From Acidimicrobiia bacterium (GTDB taxonomy: Bacteria > Actinomycetota > Acidimicrobiia > Actinomarinales > Actinomarinaceae), in the NCBI GenBank assembly GCA_028376655.1, contig JAONAZ010000004.1:1201-65200 (forward strand): DNA of 64,000 nt, given 5' to 3'. Shown here one piece after another: positions 9,140 to 64,000 of this stretch. Below the pieces are notes generated by a model. That model did no database searches and was not told the origin of the DNA. It worked only from the letters and a program-made list of their open reading frames with translations. The position numbers and the translations under genes were made by a program. Each line of letters opens with the position of its first letter. Within the stretch, counting starts at the first letter, position 1.

Positions 9140-10495
9140 ATGAATATTGACATATTATTTTTTGATGAGAATTTTAAAAACAAAGACCAATACATAGCTG
9201 ACGAAGAATCATTCATCGAATATATAAAAACTCATCAATTTGAAGGAAAATCAAAAGAGACTCTCTTAATGCCACCATCCTTATCTTCTACGGGTAACCA
9301 AACAATACTTACAGGTTCTGGAGATTACAGTCAACGAGAAATCATGGATTTAGGATATTCAATAGGAAAAAAAATAAAAAGTAATGCAACCATTAAAATT
9401 CTTAACTTTGAAGGCGATGAAGAAATTTTAACTTTAGGAATTCTTTTTTCAACTTATAAGTTTGATACATATAAAACAAAAAAAGAAAAAGAAGATATTG
9501 AAATAACTTTTTCAGAACATATGGATATTAAAAGCAATCTACTAAAAAAAGAAGCTGTTTTTTGGGTGAGAGACATGATTAATACTCCATCTCTAGATAA
9601 AACCCCTGAGTTCTTTATAGACAATATAAAAAGTCTTAATAGCGAGATAGATATCAATGTACATGATGAGAAATGGTTAGAAGATAATAATTTTGGAGCG
9701 GTTTTAGGGGTTGCTAAGGGTTCAGAAAGAAAGCCTTATTTTTTAGTTGGAGAATACAACAAAAATGCTGGTACTCAAATTGCTCTTATAGGAAAAGGTG
9801 TGATGTTTGATTCAGGAGGTCTCTCTTTAAAATCACCCGCTGGAATGGACACCATGAAAACAGACATGGCTGGAGCAGCAACTGCTTGGGGAGTGATGAG
9901 CTTAATCTCAAAACATAAAGTAGATATAGGATTAACAGTTCTAACACCTATTGTAGAAAACATGCCTAGTGGTAAAGCAATAAGGCCAGGAGATGTCTTG
10001 ACGGCTAGAAATGGTAAAACTATTGAAGTTCTAAATACTGACGCAGAGGGAAGATTAATTATGGCAGATGCATTAGCTTATGCGTCTGAAAAAAAACCAG
10101 ATCTAATTTGTGATGTAGCAACTTTGACAGGAGCAGCTTATGTTGCTTTAGGAATAGACATAGGAGCAATTTTTTCAAATAATAAAAAAATAGAGGATAA
10201 ATTCATGGAGTCTACAAAAAAATCTGGTGAAGATTTTTATCCACTCCCGCTTCATGGCGATTACAAAAAATTAATAGATTCTGATATTGCTGATATGAAA
10301 AATACTGGAGGACGTTTCGGTGGGGCCATAACAGCAGCACTACTACTTGAAAATTTTGTTGAGGATTTAGACTGGGTACACCTCGACATAGCAGGACCTG
10401 CCAGGAGTAATAATAGAAAAGGAGCAACAGGATTTTCAGTTTTAACCTTATTCGAATTTTTTAGTCAATTAGCTAAGAGTCATTCTGAGAGTTAG
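9140..10495 (+). CDS. pepA: Leucyl aminopeptidase (M17)
   Basis: NTDAEGRLIMADAL M17 signature, plus the GKGVMFDSGGLSLK and MKTDMAGAA metal-site regions. Confidence 0.9.
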   Translation: MNIDILFFDENFKNKDQYIADEESFIEYIKTHQFEGKSKETLLMPPSLSSTGNQTILTGSGDYSQREIMDLGYSIGKKIKSNATIKILNFEGDEEILTLGILFSTYKFDTYKTKKEKEDIEITFSEHMDIKSNLLKKEAVFWVRDMINTPSLDKTPEFFIDNIKSLNSEIDINVHDEKWLEDNNFGAVLGVAKGSERKPYFLVGEYNKNAGTQIALIGKGVMFDSGGLSLKSPAGMDTMKTDMAGAATAWGVMSLISKHKVDIGLTVLTPIVENMPSGKAIRPGDVLTARNGKTIEVLNTDAEGRLIMADALAYASEKKPDLICDVATLTGAAYVALGIDIGAIFSNNKKIEDKFMESTKKSGEDFYPLPLHGDYKKLIDSDIADMKNTGGRFGGAITAALLLENFVEDLDWVHLDIAGPARSNNRKGATGFSVLTLFEFFSQLAKSHSES

Positions 10496-40720: not shown

Positions 40721-41060
40721 GGGGGTGAACTGGCTTCGACTTTGAAGTGAGTCTCTCAGTAGCGAGCCGAGGGTCCTAGGGCCTCGTTAAAAACGTAGGA
40801 AAACAATATAATTGCCAAACCTAAATTGGCTATAGCCGCTTAATGCGACTCGTCGACCATCGGGGCTCCCACCTCGGGTGGTATCGGCGTCGAAATGTGG
40901 GATGCTAAGTTAAGCTACCGATTAACTTTTAAGATTAAGGTAGAAAACTTTTGAGAATATGTCTCTGGTGTCTTTCTCAAAAGTATTAACACCAGATGCG
41001 CTCGGAGAAACTGTTAGGTAGCTTAAAAGGACCGGGGTTCGACTCCCCGCACCTCCACCA
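40721..41060 (+). ncRNA. ssrA: tmRNA (SsrA)
   Basis: The 5' end GGGGGUGAACUGGCUUCGAC pairs with the 3' end CACCUCC-ACCA and includes the G3:U alanine identity pair. The T-arm is GGGGUUCGACUCCCC and CCA is encoded. The tag ORF ends ...GCC AAA CCU AAA UUG GCU AUA GCC GCU UAA (40841-43), giving (ENNII)AKPKLAIAA. The resume codon is uncertain: GAA 40799 directly after an in-frame UAG, or GCC 40814. Confidence 0.93.
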
Positions 41061-49331: not shown

Positions 49332-49403
49332 TGGGAGATGGTGTAATTGGCAACACATTTGGTTTTGGTCCAAACGTTGAGGGTTCGAGTCCTTCTCTCC
49401 CAG
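49332..49403 (+). tRNA. tRNA-Gln (anticodon UUG)
   Basis: Hand-folded cloverleaf. Acceptor UGGGAGA/UCUCCCA, D stem GUGU/ACAC, anticodon stem UUUGG/CCAAA with loop UU-UUG-GU, T arm GAGGG-UUCGAGU-CCUUC, and discriminator G. CCA is not encoded. Confidence 0.92.
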
Positions 49404-53497: not shown

Positions 53498-56062
53498 ATG
53501 GATTGGAACAAACATTTCTATTCTCTTTTTTCTTTAATAATATTTATAGTAATTATTGTTTCTTGTGTAAATATAGATTCCAGTAGCGTACTAACTGACG
53601 ACATTGCATATTATGACGATACTACCGGGTGCACTTCAAACAACTATGAACAAAATGACTTTTTAATTGTACAAAATATTCAAATGTTCCTAACTAATGA
53701 ATCATATTTTAATGGTCCATTAAACAATATGTTTGATTCAAAACTTGAAAATAGTTTAAAAAACTTCCAAAAAGCTATGGGAATAAGAATTGATGGAATA
53801 ATTGGTCCCACAACCCACAAAGCCATGCAAAAGTATGATTCATGCACTAAAAAATCAAATATAAATTACATTATTTGTTTCAATGGGGACTACAGGGCGT
53901 ACAAGCAATGTACTGGCCCAAGTAAAAATTACATATCAGAATCGGTAGTCATTTCCGAAGCTATATCTACTTCTGAAGATATTTCAGATAAAAAAGATTG
54001 TGATGATGGTGGAAAGATGTGGCATGGAGAAATAGGTACTCTTTGGAATGCTATGGGAGAATCTACTACTTACAAAAATTGTGATGAGCACAGATTAGCA
54101 AAAAATGCTGGATTTGATTTTATTGAACTGCCCATACCAGGAGTTACACCGGGTGTAGGTCTTGGTGGCCCTTCAAGTCCTTCAAGTCCCTCAAGTCCTT
54201 CGATTTCACCAACAATTAACAATCTAGGAAGTGCAATTTCAATTGCAGAAAATCAAAAAGCTGTTGTAGCAATCTCTGCAACAGGAACAGGTAGTTTGAC
54301 ATATTCATTATCTGGTACAGATTCAAGATTAATGAGTGTCGATACTAGTGGTGTTATTACATTAAACTCTGATGCTGATTATGAGCAAAAAACCTCATAC
54401 GCAGCAAATGCAATTGCCACAAACAGCGTAGGGTCAGCAACAAAGGCATTTACTGTAAATATCACTGATGTTACTGAAAAATATACTGTGAATACTTTGA
54501 TCGTTTATGATATAGACAATCTTGTAGATGGCAATAGTGCTTATGACTCTGTATCTGAGCTGACAAGTTATATGACTAACACAGTTGTGCCTGCACAAAA
54601 TACTATGCTTACCAATAGCGGAGTTACTAACTTAGAAATCGCCTTTACAGGCCTTTATCACTGGACTCTTGCTGAAGCTACTTATGCTGGTTCGCCATAC
54701 AATAGTGCAACAACAAAAATTAGTTTAGACTTTGACGTGTATAAGGAAAAAATTAAAAAAGGTGCGGATAGTTTAGGGGCTTATCTTCCAGGAAATGGGA
54801 ATAGTTCAGTTGTGTGGGATGACACAACAAAAAGAAGGAATGCACCATTTGTAATGTCTAGTAGCTTAAGTTTCGCCACAGGAAAAATTTATGGTCATGA
54901 GTGGGGACACTCGATAGGACTAGTTCATTCAAGAAATCAGTCGAGTAGTCCAGCTGAAACAGGGGATGGCATTACGGACTATGCCCACGGTTACTATGTA
55001 AGTAGCGGAAATACTTTTTCTACAACTATGGGTTATGGTTTTGTTGGATGTGGAATATATTCAAATCCAGATTTAACATGTGCAGGTGATGACGATGATA
55101 CTTTTTTTGTAGATGATAATGATGGGACAGAAGGGTCTCAAGCTGCTGGTGAAGCAAATGTTTCTGATTCTTCGAGGGTACTACAAGAGTATGCACATGA
55201 ATATGAAAGACTAGGTGCAGAAACAAATTACGGTGTAAGTGTTGGTGACTTTTCTGTTAAATCAAATGCTCACTTTCCTTTAATACATAATGGAACAGCA
55301 TCGTATAGTTTTACAGAGTCAATATCTGAAACGTCTAGCGGAACAAAAACTATGTATGTAAAAAAAGGAAGCAATGTAACAATAAGTGGAACGGAGTATG
55401 AAAGTTATACCTGGTGTGATAACTCAAGTTGTGATCTTGATGTTACTGCAAGTTATGAAAGCCAGTCTGGCCATAAAATAGGTTTTGAAATATTAGTAAA
55501 CAGTGGAAATTATTATCTTAATAAAGTTGGTTGGAGTGGCATTTTTAGCACACAAAAAGTTACTGGAAGCAGGAATCATTATGACAGACATTTTGAAGCA
55601 CCATGCTTGTTTATTAGCCACTATATGAAAACAGGACAATACAATGAAGCAGATTGTTCAACAAGATACGCACATCAAAATGTTTATGGAACTTCTTATA
55701 CAGATACTTGGAGTTTCACTAATAATGTAAAAAAGGAATTAGTTGTTACCCCTTATGGGGCATATGACGCCTATAAATATACACATTCCGAATTAAGCCT
55801 TACAGGTTCTTTTGATCCTGATGGTGCCGTTCAGGTTCTAAAATTCTGGTTCAGTCCTGAAGTTGGACTTTTAATGTTTGAAGATGAACTAATGAGAAGA
55901 TGGAAATTAACAGCTGTAGATACAGATGGTGATGGAACGGATAACGCCTCCGATACAGATGATGATGGAGATGGTGTATTAGACACTGTTGATGCTTTCC
56001 CCCTTGATCCAAACGCTTCTGCCGATGCTGATGATGATGGGATAGCTGACGGAGACGAGTAA
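53498..56062 (+). CDS. Multidomain lipoprotein: PG_binding_1 + cadherin-like repeat + metzincin protease + C-terminal Asp-rich calcium-binding (TSP3-like) repeats
   Basis: Lipobox IVSC. PG-binding motif IQMFLTNESYFNGPLNNMFDSKLENSLKNFQKAMGIRIDGIIGPTTHKAM. (PSS)n linker. Cadherin-like ISIAENQKAVVAISATGTGSLTYSLSG...VITLNSDADYEQK...FTVNITDV. Metzincin signature HEWGHSIGLVH (54896-54928). C-terminal DTDGDGTDNASDTDDDGDGVLDTVDAFPLDPNASADADDDGIADGDE. Confidence 0.8.
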   Translation: MDWNKHFYSLFSLIIFIVIIVSCVNIDSSSVLTDDIAYYDDTTGCTSNNYEQNDFLIVQNIQMFLTNESYFNGPLNNMFDSKLENSLKNFQKAMGIRIDGIIGPTTHKAMQKYDSCTKKSNINYIICFNGDYRAYKQCTGPSKNYISESVVISEAISTSEDISDKKDCDDGGKMWHGEIGTLWNAMGESTTYKNCDEHRLAKNAGFDFIELPIPGVTPGVGLGGPSSPSSPSSPSISPTINNLGSAISIAENQKAVVAISATGTGSLTYSLSGTDSRLMSVDTSGVITLNSDADYEQKTSYAANAIATNSVGSATKAFTVNITDVTEKYTVNTLIVYDIDNLVDGNSAYDSVSELTSYMTNTVVPAQNTMLTNSGVTNLEIAFTGLYHWTLAEATYAGSPYNSATTKISLDFDVYKEKIKKGADSLGAYLPGNGNSSVVWDDTTKRRNAPFVMSSSLSFATGKIYGHEWGHSIGLVHSRNQSSSPAETGDGITDYAHGYYVSSGNTFSTTMGYGFVGCGIYSNPDLTCAGDDDDTFFVDDNDGTEGSQAAGEANVSDSSRVLQEYAHEYERLGAETNYGVSVGDFSVKSNAHFPLIHNGTASYSFTESISETSSGTKTMYVKKGSNVTISGTEYESYTWCDNSSCDLDVTASYESQSGHKIGFEILVNSGNYYLNKVGWSGIFSTQKVTGSRNHYDRHFEAPCLFISHYMKTGQYNEADCSTRYAHQNVYGTSYTDTWSFTNNVKKELVVTPYGAYDAYKYTHSELSLTGSFDPDGAVQVLKFWFSPEVGLLMFEDELMRRWKLTAVDTDGDGTDNASDTDDDGDGVLDTVDAFPLDPNASADADDDGIADGDE
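54170..54202 (+). repeat. 9-nt tandem repeat (ccttcaagt x ~3.6) encoding a (PSS)n linker
   Basis: Read directly: ccttcaagt ccttcaagt ccctcaagt ccttcg. Confidence 0.7.
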
Positions 56063-58698: not shown

Positions 58699-58781
58699 CC
58701 CAACGCTAAATTAAACATTTTTAATATTTAATATTGTCTTAGAATATATTCTACTCTAAAATAGTCTTAATAAATAAAAAT

Positions 58782-61700
58782 ATGATAAATCAAGTTATTG
58801 GTGTGCTTTTGTTTGCTCCTAAAGTATTTAGGAGTATTTTTCGTATATCTACTTTGAAAAAATTACTGTCTGTAACCTTATCTTTTATCATGCTTGTATC
58901 TATTGCCTATACATTTATTGAGACAGTAGATCCTGAACCGGCTTTTGCATCGGGAGAGTTTAATTGTGTAGATAGTGACGGACGAACCTATATATATCAA
59001 AGTACCTGGTCTAGCGGAACTCTAACAATCAATAGAGGAGTTAATAACGATGCAGGTAGTTTCAGCACTTCTGTTATAGAAACTTTTAGTTCATGGGATC
59101 TTGGAAACATTGACGAAGTTAATTCACTTAGCATTACCAGTGATGGTGAAATGTTTGCAATATTAAAAAGAACAAATACAACTCAAGCATACTTATATAA
59201 ATTAAATTATAACGCTTCCGGAAATGGAACAACTACACGCATATCATCCATAGATATAGGTACTGGTGATAACAATGCAGCCTCAAATTATGAAGTTACT
59301 ACAGGTGGAACAACTTATAAATATATTTTCACTTCAAAAGGTTTCTTTAATGGAAATCAAAAAGTAATCCGAATTAATGGTGATGGCTCATACAAAGTAA
59401 TCACTCCAACAATTACAAATGGAGGCAATGGATCCAATAAAGCAAAAGACTTTGCTTGGGTTTCAAATCATCCATCTGGTAATGACTTTGTTGGATATGA
59501 TTCAAGTAATAATGATTTACTTGGAGCTGAGATAACAGCTCATACCAACCATGGAGCTAGCAACGAAGCCATAACAATTGATTTGAGTGTAATTAATGGA
59601 AATATTGGAAGTGGCATAGGTTCAAACTCAGGTGCAGCAATGTCACTTGGCAATGGTGATGTATATTTCTTAGAAAACTCAACTGGAGATCTCTGGTTAT
59701 ATGATCAGTCTGCAGGCTCATTAACAGAAACTAATGATGACTTTAGTAGTTCCAGTAATACTGATGGTGCAGGTTGCGGTATTGGTCTTTCAGGAAACGA
59801 TGAATGGGTTCCTGCATTTTCTGCTGCACAAGGTTCATGTAGTGGTAGTAATAAAACTGTAGCTGTAACACTTAATAACTCTGGTAGTGATGAAGCGGCG
59901 AATTATGTTGTCACGTATACTATCGCTTCAAGTACATCCACCCTTACATCAGGTACAAGTGTAAATGGAGGTGCGAGCAATACCTCGCTCTCTGTACCGG
60001 CACAGGCTAATGGAACATCAGTACAATTAAATTGGTATGCAGAAAATAGCACGTATGGACTCCGGTCGCCCTCGTCAGGTACGACTAGTGTCACAATATC
60101 TGTAGATGCATCTAGTTGTTCTTCAGATGTGACATGGAGTATCTCGACTACAGTCAATACTTGTTGGCTTGGACGAGCAAATGTATCAATAGCATTTGCC
60201 GCCAGTGCAAGTGGTAACACACAGTACTTTGATGTGGAATGGTCTACAGACCAATCAAACTGGACTAGCTTAGTCGATGGAGGTGCATTAGCAGCAGGTG
60301 ATACAGATACTTATACAACAACAGCTGTTAACGATGGAGGAACTGTCTACTTTCATTACAGATACGGTGACTCCAATCCATCTTCAGGGTCTTGGTTAAC
60401 TACAAATGTAACAAATAGAACTATTGATTGTGACCTAATGATAACTGTATCTACTTCATTAGGCTCTTGTTCTAATGGCTCAGCTACAACAACTGTTTCT
60501 TTTGTGGCAAGTGATAACGGTAACACACAGTATTACGATCTTCAGAGACGTGTTGATAGTGGTTCATGGGTTACCATTTTAGATGGAGAGTCAATAGCTG
60601 GGGGAGAGACCAATAATCATACCGCCACTTTAGGTAGCGGAGCATATGAATGGCAGTATAGAATTGGTGATTCCAATCCATCATCGGGCAGTTATACATC
60701 TAATGGTATTAGTGGATCTACATTAACTTCGAGGACTGTAGATTGTGATGTTACATTTACAATTTCAACTTCAATTAATTCTTGTTCCAGTGGAGCAGCA
60801 ACAGTTTCAATTGCATTCGCAGCAAGTGCTGCTGGAAATACGCAGTACTTTGATGTTCAATGGTCAACAGACCAATCAAACTGGACGAACTTAGTCGATG
60901 GAGGTGGTCTTACTTCAGGCGATACGGACACCTATACAACATCAGCTGTTGCTGATGGAGCAACCGTCTATTTCCAATATAGATATGGTGACTCCAATCC
61001 ATCTTCAGGATCTTTTGTGAATACAAATGTTACAAACAGGACCATAGATTGTGATTATATTGATCTCTCTTTCTCTGAAAGTTTTTCAAGCTGTTCAAGC
61101 GGGGCTAAGACAGCTACATTTGCAATTACAAATAGTAGCTCAGCTACTACACATGCCTTTTTGCTCGTAGAGTATTCCACAGATGGTGGTTCTAGTTGGA
61201 CACAAAAAGTTGCTAATCAAGAAGTAGAAGAAAATGAGACAATAAATCTCACACAATCAGTTGCACACGGCCAAACTATCCAGTGGAGATATAAAACCTC
61301 TATATCTTCAGGATCTTTTACTGGTAGTTACACTGAGCGAACTGAAAGTTCAACTGTTAGCTGTCCCGTCATTGACTCATCAGTAAGTCAAGCATTAGGA
61401 AATTGTTCTAGTGGGGCTAAGGTCTCAACATTTACAATGAGCAACTCTGATTCTGCAAATACAGCAGCATACTTTAATGTTCAATATAAAATTGACAACG
61501 GCTCATATCAAAATGCTAGCAATACAAATGTTTCAGTTAGCGCAAACGGATCAGCAACATTAACTCAAAGTGTTCCTCATGGTTCAACAATTACCTGGCA
61601 GTATAGAACCTCAACCACCTCAGAGTCATTTAGTGGCAGCTACACTGCTATTTCTGCAAGCTCAGAGGTTGATTGCCCAGTTATTGATACCACTGTTTCC

Positions 61701-64000
61701 GATAGTTTAGGAAGTTGTTCAAGTGGATCTGCAACATCTACATTTACAATGAATAATAGTAATTCCGCAACTACGAATGCTTATTTTGAGGTTCAATACC
61801 AAGTGACTGATGCAGATGGTAATACGGGAGCCTGGCAGTCGAAACTTTCTAATCAATCAGTTGCTAAGAACGATTCCGAAACAACAACTCAATCTATAAA
61901 TGTGGGTGAGAAGATTAAATGGAAATATAGGACATCTACATCAAGTGGATCTTTCAGTGGCAGCTATACAGAAGAGGACTTAAGTTCTGCTGTCTCCTGC
62001 TCAATAGATATAGGAGCTTCTCAGTCTCTTGGCTCCTGTTCAGGTGCATCTAAAACTTCAACACTTACTATGACAAATAGCAACTCCGCAACAACTACAG
62101 CATATTTTAATGTTCAGTACAAAATTGATAATGGTTCTTATCAAACTCATTCAAGCGGGGCCAGTGTTTCAGTTTCTAAAAATGGCTCATCAGGCCTCAC
62201 ACAATCTGTACCAAATGGATCAACAATCACCTGGCAGTACAGAACATCACAGTTTAATGGTACGTTTTCAGGAAGTTATACAGCTATAAGTGCAAGTAGT
62301 ACCGTAAGTTGTACAACACCTGCAGCCTCAGCTTCTGCCGCAAGTTGCTCCAGTGGTTCTGGAAACATAACCATGACACTTGATAACTCAGATCAAGGTG
62401 CAGCTAATTACTTTAAAGTTCAATACACAACAGACAGTCCACTCGGTTCGCAAACTTGGTCTAATGGTATCGGAGGTTCTCATGTTCAGGTGGGTGCAGA
62501 TGCAACTTCAGATGTCACCTTAGCAAGTTCAGCTATTAGTCACGGCACTACGGTGTATTTAAGATATCAGACCTCGAGTTCCACAGATTTTTCTTCAGCA
62601 TCTACAACAACTTTAAGTAGTATCACAATTGACTGCCCAGTATTAAGTGGAACTGCTTCAGCTTCCGCAGCTAGCTGTTCGAGTGGTAGTGCTGCGGTTC
62701 CAATAACACTTAATAATTCAGGATCAAACATTGCAGGCGTCTTTACAGTTAGGTATTCAACTAATGGTGGCTCGAGTTATACAACGCTTACTGCTACCTC
62801 TGTTGCTGCAGGACAGACAGATACCTCATCACTCTCTATCTCGGCACAATCACATACAACTGCGGTAATAATTAAGTACAGTGTTGCAAACTCATCTGAA
62901 GGATTAAGTCAGTCAGAGGCAACATTATCAACCATAACTATTGACTGCGAGGTAATAAGTTTGACAGCTACAAAAGCAGCCGATGGTTGCAGTAATAATG
63001 GAACTGGTCAAGGTGGGGTATTTGGTAAAACAAAAATCAATATAGACAACAGTGGAAGCAATGTTGCTGTGAATGTACGGCTTCAGAAACAAACTACTAA
63101 CGCGGTTAGTGGGGATGTAACTACATGGGCATATTTTGCCAGTGGAACAACTGGTGGAAGTAGTGGTACTTCCATTAATGCTGGTGTTACGGATACTCAG
63201 TTTAGTTTTGATAGTCACGCACATGGAACAGGAATACAATATCGTTACTCAACTAATGATGGGTCAACCTGGACAGAGATTGGATCAAAAATTACTATGT
63301 CATGTGCAGGTGTTTCTACTGCGGTTGGAACATGCTCAGTTTCTAGTACTCAAACAACAACAATAACTCTTAATAGTGGCTCCCAAGCAACAGTATCAGT
63401 TTTTTACAGGGTAGAATATTCAACTAACAGTGGTTCTTCATGGACTGAATTAAAAAATGATGAGGAGGTTACGGCTAATTCATCTGAAACTTATAACGGA
63501 CCAGTGTTAGCTAATGGTGAAACTGTTCAATGGAGATATAGTTCCAGAAAATCTGGAACATCACATGATAGTTCCTCATGGGTAACGGATGAGACAGATA
63601 TACCTGGTGTAGATCCGACCCTTTCTTATACTGCTAATTGTCCAATTCAGAACCCTACAACCACAACCACAACCACAACTACAACTTCAACCACAACTAC
63701 AACTACAACTACAACTACAACCACGACTCTCCCTCCAACAACGACTACTACGCTCAAACAGGAGATATTTAAACCATCATTATTTGTAAACAGATCTTGT
63801 TCAGACGGTGGTGGAGCATCATTTGGGATTACAGCTCTAAATGTAAGTTCCACAGTGGGTGCAGATATTAGAGTAAAAGTCTGGGTAGACAGCAAAAGAG
63901 TATTCTTTAATACGTATAAAGTTGGCGCTAATAATAATATATTCATCACGTCTATTGGTGGTGTGCCAGAAGATTCTAATTTTAAGATAAAGATTGTTTT
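58782..64000 (+). CDS. Giant secreted/cell-surface repeat protein, 3'-truncated by the window edge (at least 1,739 codons); absent from the supplied ORF track
   Basis: Hand translation from ATG 58782 (the first ATG after an in-frame TAG at 58740) finds no stop through 63998. The N-terminal hydrophobic segment has a PEPAFA/SGE cleavage-like site. A non-repeat head of about 300 aa follows, then 12 tandem modules of ~104 aa, a poly-Thr linker, and at least one more module. Confidence 0.88.
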   Translation, partial: MINQVIGVLLFAPKVFRSIFRISTLKKLLSVTLSFIMLVSIAYTFIETVDPEPAFASGEFNCVDSDGRTYIYQSTWSSGTLTINRGVNNDAGSFSTSVIETFSSWDLGNIDEVNSLSITSDGEMFAILKRTNTTQAYLYKLNYNASGNGTTTRISSIDIGTGDNNAASNYEVTTGGTTYKYIFTSKGFFNGNQKVIRINGDGSYKVITPTITNGGNGSNKAKDFAWVSNHPSGNDFVGYDSSNNDLLGAEITAHTNHGASNEAITIDLSVINGNIGSGIGSNSGAAMSLGNGDVYFLENSTGDLWLYDQSAGSLTETNDDFSSSSNTDGAGCGIGLSGNDEWVPAFSAAQGSCSGSNKTVAVTLNNSGSDEAANYVVTYTIASSTSTLTSGTSVNGGASNTSLSVPAQANGTSVQLNWYAENSTYGLRSPSSGTTSVTISVDASSCSSDVTWSISTTVNTCWLGRANVSIAFAASASGNTQYFDVEWSTDQSNWTSLVDGGALAAGDTDTYTTTAVNDGGTVYFHYRYGDSNPSSGSWLTTNVTNRTIDCDLMITVSTSLGSCSNGSATTTVSFVASDNGNTQYYDLQRRVDSGSWVTILDGESIAGGETNNHTATLGSGAYEWQYRIGDSNPSSGSYTSNGISGSTLTSRTVDCDVTFTISTSINSCSSGAATVSIAFAASAAGNTQYFDVQWSTDQSNWTNLVDGGGLTSGDTDTYTTSAVADGATVYFQYRYGDSNPSSGSFVNTNVTNRTIDCDYIDLSFSESFSSCSSGAKTATFAITNSSSATTHAFLLVEYSTDGGSSWTQKVANQEVEENETINLTQSVAHGQTIQWRYKTSISSGSFTGSYTERTESSTVSCPVIDSSVSQALGNCSSGAKVSTFTMSNSDSANTAAYFNVQYKIDNGSYQNASNTNVSVSANGSATLTQSVPHGSTITWQYRTSTTSESFSGSYTAISASSEVDCPVIDTTVSDSLGSCSSGSATSTFTMNNSNSATTNAYFEVQYQVTDADGNTGAWQSKLSNQSVAKNDSETTTQSINVGEKIKWKYRTSTSSGSFSGSYTEEDLSSAVSCSIDIGASQSLGSCSGASKTSTLTMTNSNSATTTAYFNVQYKIDNGSYQTHSSGASVSVSKNGSSGLTQSVPNGSTITWQYRTSQFNGTFSGSYTAISASSTVSCTTPAASASAASCSSGSGNITMTLDNSDQGAANYFKVQYTTDSPLGSQTWSNGIGGSHVQVGADATSDVTLASSAISHGTTVYLRYQTSSSTDFSSASTTTLSSITIDCPVLSGTASASAASCSSGSAAVPITLNNSGSNIAGVFTVRYSTNGGSSYTTLTATSVAAGQTDTSSLSISAQSHTTAVIIKYSVANSSEGLSQSEATLSTITIDCEVISLTATKAADGCSNNGTGQGGVFGKTKINIDNSGSNVAVNVRLQKQTTNAVSGDVTTWAYFASGTTGGSSGTSINAGVTDTQFSFDSHAHGTGIQYRYSTNDGSTWTEIGSKITMSCAGVSTAVGTCSVSSTQTTTITLNSGSQATVSVFYRVEYSTNSGSSWTELKNDEEVTANSSETYNGPVLANGETVQWRYSSRKSGTSHDSSSWVTDETDIPGVDPTLSYTANCPIQNPTTTTTTTTTTSTTTTTTTTTTTTTLPPTTTTTLKQEIFKPSLFVNRSCSDGGGASFGITALNVSSTVGADIRVKVWVDSKRVFFNTYKVGANNNIFITSIGGVPEDSNFKIKIV
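59778..63641 (+). repeat. Array of 12 tandem coding modules (102-119 codons; four are exactly 312 nt), each with exactly two Cys
   Basis: Module ends (the terminal Cys codon) fall at 60119, 60431, 60746, 61052, 61364, 61676, 62000, 62312, 62636, 62948, 63305 and 63641. The recurrent pattern is C-x(9-20)-C-S-(S/G)-G...T-(F/L)-x-(M/L)-x-N-S...(Y/F)-F-x-V-(Q/E)-(Y/W)...G-x-T-(I/V)-x-(W/F)-x-Y-R...(D/S)-C. Confidence 0.85.
63657..63752 (+). repeat. ACN trinucleotide microsatellite encoding a T10-S-T13-LPP-T5 linker
   Basis: Read directly: aca acc aca acc aca acc aca act aca act tca acc aca act ... The antisense poly-Val ORF in the track (63647..63949 -) is its shadow. Confidence 0.9.

Follow-up and report, generated by a model that had tools for sequence, protein, structure and literature searches.

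What protein is encoded by a reading frame that opens at an ATG close behind thrC and is still open where the available sequence ends? This question is posed by a 64,000-nucleotide stretch of DNA from an Acidimicrobiia bacterium (contig JAONAZ010000004.1, positions 1,201 to 65,200 of the forward strand; hereafter the window), for which a first-pass annotation, made from the sequence alone, had proposed a giant secreted repeat protein starting at position 58782. Comparison with public contigs makes it likely that this frame represents the 5' three-quarters of a gene of about 2,250 codons from Candidatus (Ca.) Actinomarina, and that the gene encodes a fibrillar, wall-anchored surface protein with a dedicated class-E-like sortase of its own in the same chain. 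According to textbooks, sortases act in trans, on substrates that are made as separate proteins and have to be met in the membrane. The comparisons described below indicate that the sortase-substrate fusion is real and conserved.

The window is placed in Ca. Actinomarinales, ultra-small and streamlined marine Actinobacteria, because of a WhiB gene upstream of the giant frame, a guanine-plus-cytosine (GC) content of about 34%, the genome records with matches, namely, Ca. Actinomarina or OCS155 single-cell genomes and Actinomarinales metagenome-assembled genomes (MAGs), and the NCBI name of one homologue, "class E sortase, partial [Candidatus Actinomarina sp.]". The giant gene represents about 0.6% of a streamlined genome of 1.1 Mb.

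A giant gene that continues beyond the window

Direct translation of the plus strand from 58782 to 63998 yields 1,739 codons without a stop, as the first-pass annotation had stated, and the probability of such a stop-free run, computed with the base composition of the segment, is about 10^-52. The ATG is located 83 nucleotides 3' of the thrC stop. The frame is missing from the supplied track of open reading frames (ORFs) because it passes the window edge, and it is the largest gene of the window, the second-largest ORF comprising 988 residues. The composition of the product (S 17.4%, T 14.4%, G 9.1%, N 7.3%, and K+R 4.2%) agrees with its description as rich in Ser, Thr, Asn, and Gly and poor in charge. 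A horizontal origin, considered in view of a GC fraction of 0.40 as compared to about 0.34, was rejected, since the S/T/G/A-rich composition is the better explanation.

The giant frame is a real gene under purifying selection, because independent contigs keep it open and its ratio of nonsynonymous to synonymous polymorphism (pN/pS) is 0.065-0.107 in comparisons of the window with three contigs. The exact ThrC protein of the window was found on nine public contigs that are 98.2-99.96% identical to the window across the shared stretches, and in all nine the giant frame begins 83 nucleotides downstream. In-frame stops in independent assemblies were looked for, and contigs from other samples, which cover the frame at 96-99.5% nucleotide identity, carry none. 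The minus-strand ORFs that the track lists at 59903-60220 (105 residues), 62928-63239, and 63647-63949 are present as reported; they lie inside the giant gene, whose plus frame is under purifying selection, and are antisense shadows rather than genes.

The true 3' end of the gene was found on two extending contigs in which it lies directly 3' of hom-thrC, as in the window. The stop follows after 2,249 residues in L001 (a 462-kb contig) and after 2,245 residues in L010 (a 214-kb MAG contig), and both encode the wall-anchoring signal that the first-pass annotation had suggested seeking past the edge. Some 510 3' codons are located outside the window, and residue numbers of the tail refer to the L001 protein. 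For the window's own gene, a full length of about 2,250 residues with LAETG and sortase is predicted because the allele on scaffolds L018 and L019, which is nearest to the window on both sides of a poly-Thr tract (96% identity over 59616-63635 and 96.5% over 63717-64000), encodes them: its protein, P0009, contains LAETG, two transmembrane (TM) segments, and a sortase, followed by a stop.

Sorting signal and sortase in one chain

In the L001 protein, a Pro/Thr/acidic region, predicted to span the wall, leads to LAETG (1853-1857), a first TM segment (TM1, ~1860-1878), RKKK (1882-1885), a cytoplasmic domain (~1886-2026), a second TM segment (TM2, 2027-2045), and a sortase domain (~2121-2242) with Y2148, H2165, C2226, and R2235. 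The sorting signal reads ...YYYQEDSLK-LAETG-IDLDY-ILISGSLVLFAGLALF-SSSRKKK; its hydrophobic segment, LDYILISGSLVLFAGLALF, comprises 19 residues with a Kyte-Doolittle hydropathy of 2.0 and is followed by SSSRKKK. LAETG is present in L001, in L010, and in P0009, the closest allele of the window. The signal is not C-terminal, as 392 in-frame residues follow the motif. Of these, a conserved segment of about 140 residues after RKKK matches no known family and was modelled by AlphaFold2 (AF2), with moderate confidence, as a small alpha/beta domain. The fused sortase has two TM segments with this cytoplasmic domain between them instead of a single N-terminal signal-anchor, and the first of the two is the TM segment of the sorting signal. 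The predicted topology is self-consistent, with the ectodomain outside, TM1 leading to RKKK and the cytoplasmic domain inside, and TM2 returning the sortase to the outside. The only ATG from which a separate sortase could be made is at residue 1926, about 100 codons before TM2; it has no Shine-Dalgarno sequence, and the neighbouring genes that were checked mostly have none either.

The sortase domain matches Pfam PF04203 with 107.1 bits (cutoff 26.6, E = 6.7e-31). Among the NCBIfam sortase classes, class E (NF033747) is the best match with 120.4 bits, which is below its cutoff of 160, followed by class C (98.7 bits) and class D (79.9-90.8 bits); the score for TIGR03784 is 65 bits (cutoff 158). 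The catalytic set is H2165, C2226 (in TLTTC), and R2235, of which His is invariant and Cys and Arg are at least 90% conserved in 43 homologues. A Tyr in the sequence GPGHY, following the beta3 His, aligns with GPGHY of the class E structure 5uus, whereas class C structures have GxGHL with Leu. Its position matches that of Tyr229 in the beta3/beta4 loop of SrtE1, which was proposed to select Ala at P3, and LAxTG is the motif of class E sortases (PMC5148588). These similarities place the tail sortase closest to class E.

The same elements occur as separate genes in relatives. At the same hom-thrC locus, four contigs (L014-L017) encode a homologous giant protein of 1,667 residues that has the signal, propeller, modules, poly-Thr tract, last module, and acidic segment of the window gene and ends in ...EDEVN-IASTG-IFEDLYILYFVVFSTAGIVLFNWI-PRRRKD-stop, a canonical C-terminal sorting signal. 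A separate sortase gene of 391 codons, with its own short N-terminal stub and an additional TM segment, follows 20 nucleotides downstream. An alignment across the junction shows that the fused form differs from the split form by the lack of about 33 residues, namely, the stop, the N-terminal stub of the sortase, its first TM segment, and a basic patch; the upstream part pairs with the sorting signal of the substrate and the downstream part with the cytoplasmic domain of the sortase. This alignment identifies the first 1,850 residues of the fused chain as homologous to a bona fide sortase substrate and the last 390 as the sortase dedicated to it. The split form would become the fused one by deletion in frame, which suggests a direction for the change.

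In a third type of cassette (L052-L065), ORFs of more than 3,198 codons end in xxxTG-TM-RR-stop (FAPTG, IPFTG, LPVTG, YGPTG, and others), and a sortase of 543-553 residues overlaps or directly follows the giant ORF. On one Actinomarinales contig, L011 (CALSSQ010000001.1, isolate AA_MB45, 1.02 Mb), a split cassette of the L014 type is located directly upstream of a fused one, and all three cassette types are found within about 40 kb of this genome. Both giant genes of L011 contain frame breaks, namely, a 1-nucleotide insertion near 9190 and, at 2228-2391, an overlap of ORFs that lie in different frames. They probably reflect errors in the assembly consensus and not pseudogenisation. That the split junction of L011 is itself a frameshift error was considered and rejected, since the junction has an in-frame stop, neither of the two remaining frames is open, and the four independent contigs of the L014 type are split in the same way.

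Fused and split cassettes (L001, L014, and L052) also have in common an acidic and aromatic segment, ...EEGNDFxxWDxFDEDxYFTDGxYxVxYxYxED..., located just before the motif (residues ~1810-1852 in L001, outside the window). The dedicated sortase might recognise this segment in addition to the motif.

The fusion is conserved among homologues. In 47 homologues, [LM]AxTG and a TM segment are located 360-380 residues upstream of TLTTC in a single chain, and the motif is LAATG in 29 and LAETG in 11 of them, followed by MADTG, LADTG, and LANTG. In an alignment of 43 sequences, with fused homologues as distant as about 40% identity, the motif residues A, T, and G are conserved to at least 90%, although the adjoining linker is not conserved. 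Invariant in this alignment are an Arg of the basic patch (R221) and several positions within the cytoplasmic domain. One of these distant homologues, P0135, is a complete fusion of 1,471 residues with about 40% identity. A scan of one genome per GTDB species identified the fused architecture at 30 loci, with up to 2,617 open codons before the motif, corresponding to proteins of about 3,000 residues. Most of these loci derive from single-cell genomes of Actinomarina and are thus independent of metagenome assembly.

When 1.84 billion representative proteins were searched with a profile, only a handful showed the complete tail architecture, and the remaining best 150 matches have a sortase domain with, at most, an adjacent TM region. 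For the head as for the tail architecture, homologues turned up almost exclusively in Ca. Actinomarinales. Together with the conserved signal and the LAETG-TM-RKKK tail, this distribution bears out the proposal of a secreted, lineage-specific, surface-exposed repeat protein. No fused substrate is present in 12 inspected long class E sortases of high-GC actinobacteria, which have cytoplasmic N-terminal extensions. Other class-E-like matches (P0066, P0255, P0188, P0263, and others), mostly of high GC content and all without taxon labels, terminate in two additional TM helices, with ...LP[AS][ND][FYL] as a conserved C-terminus. They recall the SafA-like domain fused to a Bifidobacterium dentium sortase that is mentioned in PMC9282373.

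Proposed processing of the fused protein and alternative explanations

The following sequence of events would account for this architecture. The protein would be exported by the Sec system through its N-terminal signal peptide, which would then be removed, and an ectodomain of about 1,800 residues, consisting of the propeller head, a 12-module stalk, the poly-Thr spacer, the last module, and the Pro/Thr/acidic segment, would be translocated. The hydrophobic segment after LAETG would act as a stop-transfer sequence that leaves RKKK and the ~140-residue domain in the cytoplasm, and TM2 would re-export the sortase. C2226 could then attack the bond between T1856 and G1857 of LAETG, either in its own or in a neighbouring chain, and the giant ectodomain would be passed on to a peptidoglycan precursor, as expected from the established sortase mechanism. 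What is left over would be a sortase with two TM segments, i.e., the architecture of the free-standing sortases of the split versions.

A more far-reaching proposal is an obligate self-sorting module, which would be the first natural sortase to process its own polypeptide. The helix of the sorting signal would double as the first membrane anchor of the enzyme and hold LAxTG beside the active site, each giant fibre would be installed in cis by the enzyme molecule synthesised together with it, in a strict 1:1 ratio and possibly with a single turnover, and in evolutionary terms the released stub with two TM segments would correspond to the free-standing sortases of the split cassettes. This extension is put forward tentatively and is considered possible but less likely than not.

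Several points weigh against a surface protein anchored by its own sortase. We know of no other sortase substrate with an internal sorting signal. The tail was modelled by AF2 too poorly (pLDDT 57) to judge docking, and LAETG does not sit in the active site of the model; the class E score falls short of its cutoff, and neither head nor modules match any characterised family in Pfam, NCBIfam, or PDB sequence searches. Some Actinomarinales genomes possess additional unfused sortase paralogues, and processing in trans by another enzyme is therefore possible. Furthermore, the last 510 codons of the window's gene are predicted from contigs of 96-98% identity, with a recombination breakpoint at the poly-Thr tract.

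Some of these observations would also fit a protein that is never cleaved, in which LAxTG is a relic, the ectodomain is tethered by a hairpin of two TM segments, and the sortase is inactive or serves other substrates. The sorting signal is internal instead of C-terminal, the motif remains undocked in the model, two TM segments would suffice as an anchor, and other giant substrates and sortases exist in some genomes. However, a relic is difficult to reconcile with a motif that even fused homologues of about 40% identity retain, in contrast to the drifting linker beside it, or with the conservation of the catalytic His, Cys, and Arg and of the class E Tyr. In the split versions, the equivalent motif is part of a canonical C-terminal sorting signal, and a scan of the 64-kb window and of four related loci (L001 and L010-L012), a small fraction of a genome, revealed no further protein with a sorting signal that could be an alternative substrate. 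This explanation is thus considered unlikely.

Even less probable is a cut at LAxTG that does not lead to peptidoglycan anchoring, the ectodomain being either released into the water by hydrolysis or joined head to tail into a pilus-like polymer. Sortases are able to hydrolyse their substrates when a nucleophile is lacking, and the pilus-polymerising class C is the second NCBIfam match and is represented among the top PDB sequence matches. The best class match, LAxTG, and the GPGHY Tyr, in contrast, indicate class E, the actinobacterial housekeeping anchoring class, and the protein has neither pilin motif nor E-box (no YPK, PKN, or ETxAP in 2,249 residues). The Pro/Thr-rich segment before the motif is, in addition, typical of the wall-spanning regions of anchored proteins. 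An artefact, finally, be it a collapsed repeat, a missing stop, a chimeric contig, or a decaying pseudogene, is highly improbable. The poly-Thr tract does break short-read assemblies, as contigs L003-L005 end inside it and scaffolds L018 and L019 have gaps of N there, and the giant genes of L011 contain 1-nucleotide frameshifts. Nevertheless, two intact full-length ORFs stem from separate projects, the 30 fused loci of species representatives include many single-cell genomes with frames open over up to 2,617 codons before the motif, pN/pS is about 0.07-0.1, and the stalk modules are just 22-70% identical to each other, which makes the repeat collapse contemplated in the first-pass annotation unlikely.

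The favoured explanation, a wall-anchored fibrillar protein fused to a dedicated sortase, can be set against several known systems. The class E systems, i.e., S. coelicolor SrtE1/SrtE2 with the chaplins (5cuw), the C. diphtheriae sortase-like protein 5uus, and A. oris SrtA, have the same fold, H/C/R triad, and GPGHY Tyr, as well as LAxTG followed by a TM segment and a basic patch. SrtE1 similarly contains a sizeable cytoplasmic segment before its TM anchor, which is required for function (PMC5148588). Unlike in these systems, the N-terminal membrane segment of the enzyme is here the sorting signal of a substrate of about 1,850 residues in the same chain, and the pairing looks like one enzyme for one substrate rather than housekeeping. 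With MSCRAMM (microbial surface components recognizing adhesive matrix molecules) and stalk-and-tip adhesins, the protein has in common a signal peptide, a distal head, a stalk of tandem beta-sandwiches, a Pro/Thr-rich wall-spanning segment, and a sorting signal. It differs from them in that no known adhesin or stalk family is recognised in its head or repeats, in that the sortase is fused, and in that the host is a free-living, planktonic, ultra-small cell and not a pathogen or biofilm former. The split cassettes of Actinomarinales (L014-L017, L052-L065, and the upstream one of L011) are alike in head, modules, last module, cytoplasmic domain, and sortase, as well as in the xAxTG motif and the acidic segment ...EEGNDFxxWDxxDExxYxTDGxYxVxYxY..., but their substrate ends in a sorting signal and a stop, and the separate sortase has an extra N-terminal TM segment.

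Dedicated pairs of one sortase and one substrate exist, such as the class GN "marine sortase" TIGR03784 with its adjacent target or SrtB-IsdC. Their adjacent and apparently exclusive pairing resembles the present case, whereas they are, to our knowledge, always separate genes. In engineered self-cleaving sortase tags (SrtA-LPXTG-target), enzyme and motif are likewise in a single chain and self-processing is possible. These are, however, soluble laboratory constructs with the enzyme N-terminal of the motif and hydrolytic release, whereas the protein described here is natural and membrane embedded, with the substrate N-terminal of the enzyme and, presumably, transpeptidation to the wall.

A literature search, which was not exhaustive, revealed only engineering uses and no description of a natural sortase-substrate fusion, nor any paper tying Actinomarina or OCS155 to a sortase; two dedicated Actinomarina genome papers mention neither a sortase nor the giant protein, and NCBIfam holds no model for such a fusion. 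Within the limits of this search, the fusion is an undescribed variant of a well-known system and not a new kind of system. The natural fusion and its split relatives offer a ready system to study the encounter of sortase and sorting signal in cis and in trans and to probe the roles of the TM helix and the cytoplasmic extension in class E enzymes. The fused form also raises the question of why a cell would couple the dose of an enzyme to that of its substrate, and, as a natural counterpart of the self-cleaving sortase tag, it could be of biotechnological use. Ca. Actinomarina is among the smallest and most abundant free-living bacteria of the ocean, and the giant protein is probably the dominant protein structure of its surface. 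The cell envelope of this organism has been described as unknown (PMC7771536).

Ectodomain architecture and neighbouring genes

The hydrophobic N-terminus with an AxA-type site noticed in the first-pass annotation corresponds to a predicted signal peptide (residues 1-56; 58782-58949, plus strand), which was delimited by hydropathy and by a cleavage-site motif conserved in homologues. A basic n-region and a hydrophobic core of 19 residues (LLSVTLSFIMLVSIAYTFI) are followed by ETVDPEPAFA|SGEF. The EPAxA|xGEFxC site is kept in more than 20 homologues with identities down to 30%, which suggests cleavage by signal peptidase I at EPAFA|SGEF and Sec export.

Residues 57-339 (58950-59798) form the head, with conserved Cys62 and Cys332 and the motif N-[TN]-D-G-A-[GA]-C. 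It has no match in Pfam and none in a single-sequence search of the PDB. Based on an alignment of 26 sequences, AF2 predicts an all-beta propeller (pLDDT 89.2, pTM 0.85). Of the combined structure prediction and Foldseek check that had been suggested, the first part yielded this confident fold, whereas Foldseek returned only generic propellers (Kelch, NHL, 6PGL-like/lactonase-like, and the PknD sensor) with template-modelling scores of 0.3-0.46 and 9-16% identity, from which no function can be transferred. An assignment of function by likeness to Kelch, NHL, or lactonase proteins was accordingly rejected, as the scores are low and the fold is generic.

The repeat character of the protein resides in a stalk of 12 tandem, all-beta modules of about 104 residues (residues 340-1620; 59799-63641), defined by a module alignment in which Cys is invariant at module positions 14 and 104. 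Module 1 was modelled by AF2 as a beta-sandwich. Searches of the full 1,739-residue product against Pfam and NCBIfam gave nothing above threshold, which includes S-layer and S-layer homology (SLH) families as well as any known adhesive or stalk domain family; the best Pfam match of the stalk, Reelin_subrepeat-B, remained below threshold (25 bits, cutoff 27), and a profile search of the PDB with the module alignment gave nothing meaningful (E of at least 0.015). Of the functions offered in the first-pass annotation, a sortase-anchored, adhesin-like fibrillar protein fits these data, whereas the S-layer-like coat finds no family match. Judged from its architecture, the propeller tip would have a binding or interface role about 50 nm from the wall, a rough estimate that assumes 12 Ig-like modules plus the head at typical domain sizes.

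The stalk is followed by a poly-Thr spacer (residues 1621-1657; 63642-63752), encoded in part by a CTACAA repeat at 63655-63721, and by the start of a 13th, distinct, membrane-proximal module (residues 1658-1739; 63753-64000), truncated by the window edge. The poly-Thr tract is polymorphic in length, with a difference of 3 codons between the window and L001. It is also a recombination breakpoint: the window has a different 3' allele from L001, because the synonymous polymorphism between the two rises from 0.02 before the tract to 0.61 after it. The head and the number of modules vary between species. This variability, together with recombination at the poly-Thr tract, is the pattern expected for an interface with phages, grazers, or particles.

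Upstream, the giant gene is separated from thrC by an AT-rich spacer of 83 nucleotides (58699-58781). A scan of this spacer gave only weak promoter-like matches that are not above chance and, as at neighbouring genes, no Shine-Dalgarno sequence. A terminator call near the gene start was disregarded, as it lies within the signal-peptide codons and the promoter and terminator scans are not above chance. Two genes upstream of the giant gene, 53498-56062 (plus strand) encodes a protein of 854 residues with a PG_binding_1 domain (E = 3.8e-10) and weak cadherin and M10 matches. The segment 53507-55872 has no megablast match to L001, which is otherwise 98% identical and whose counterpart gene encodes 877 residues; this is a second hypervariable envelope protein.

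Downstream, a TetR-like gene of 210-213 codons follows within a few nucleotides of all fused and all L014-type split cassettes (18166-18807 in L001, 11204-11845 in L010, 4597-5235 and 11204-11842 in L011, and 9244-9876 in L014). Possibly a regulator specific to these cassettes, it has a borderline match to TetR_N (23.7 bits, cutoff 24) and is missing from the third cassette type (L052). Next to it, positions 18811-20547 of L001 encode a membrane protein of 578 residues with a weak match to the "FGLLP motif-containing membrane protein" family, a poly-Thr linker of its own, and ten tandem copies of SSRYHHNHN near its C-terminus. These copies are missing in L010, L012, and L018, where the protein has 479-480 residues, and the array in L001 represents either an expansion of a 27-nucleotide repeat or an assembly artefact.

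Cassettes of the Actinomarinales type were also found in MAGs filed under Flavobacteriales, Anaerolineales UBA832, Gammaproteobacteria RS590, and Methanobacteriota ARS96 (L051, L062, L063, and L065), probably as a result of binning contamination. Elsewhere in the window, a transfer-messenger RNA gene at 40721-41060 (170.7 bits) and one transfer RNA gene at 49332-49403, both on the plus strand, are the sole Rfam matches.

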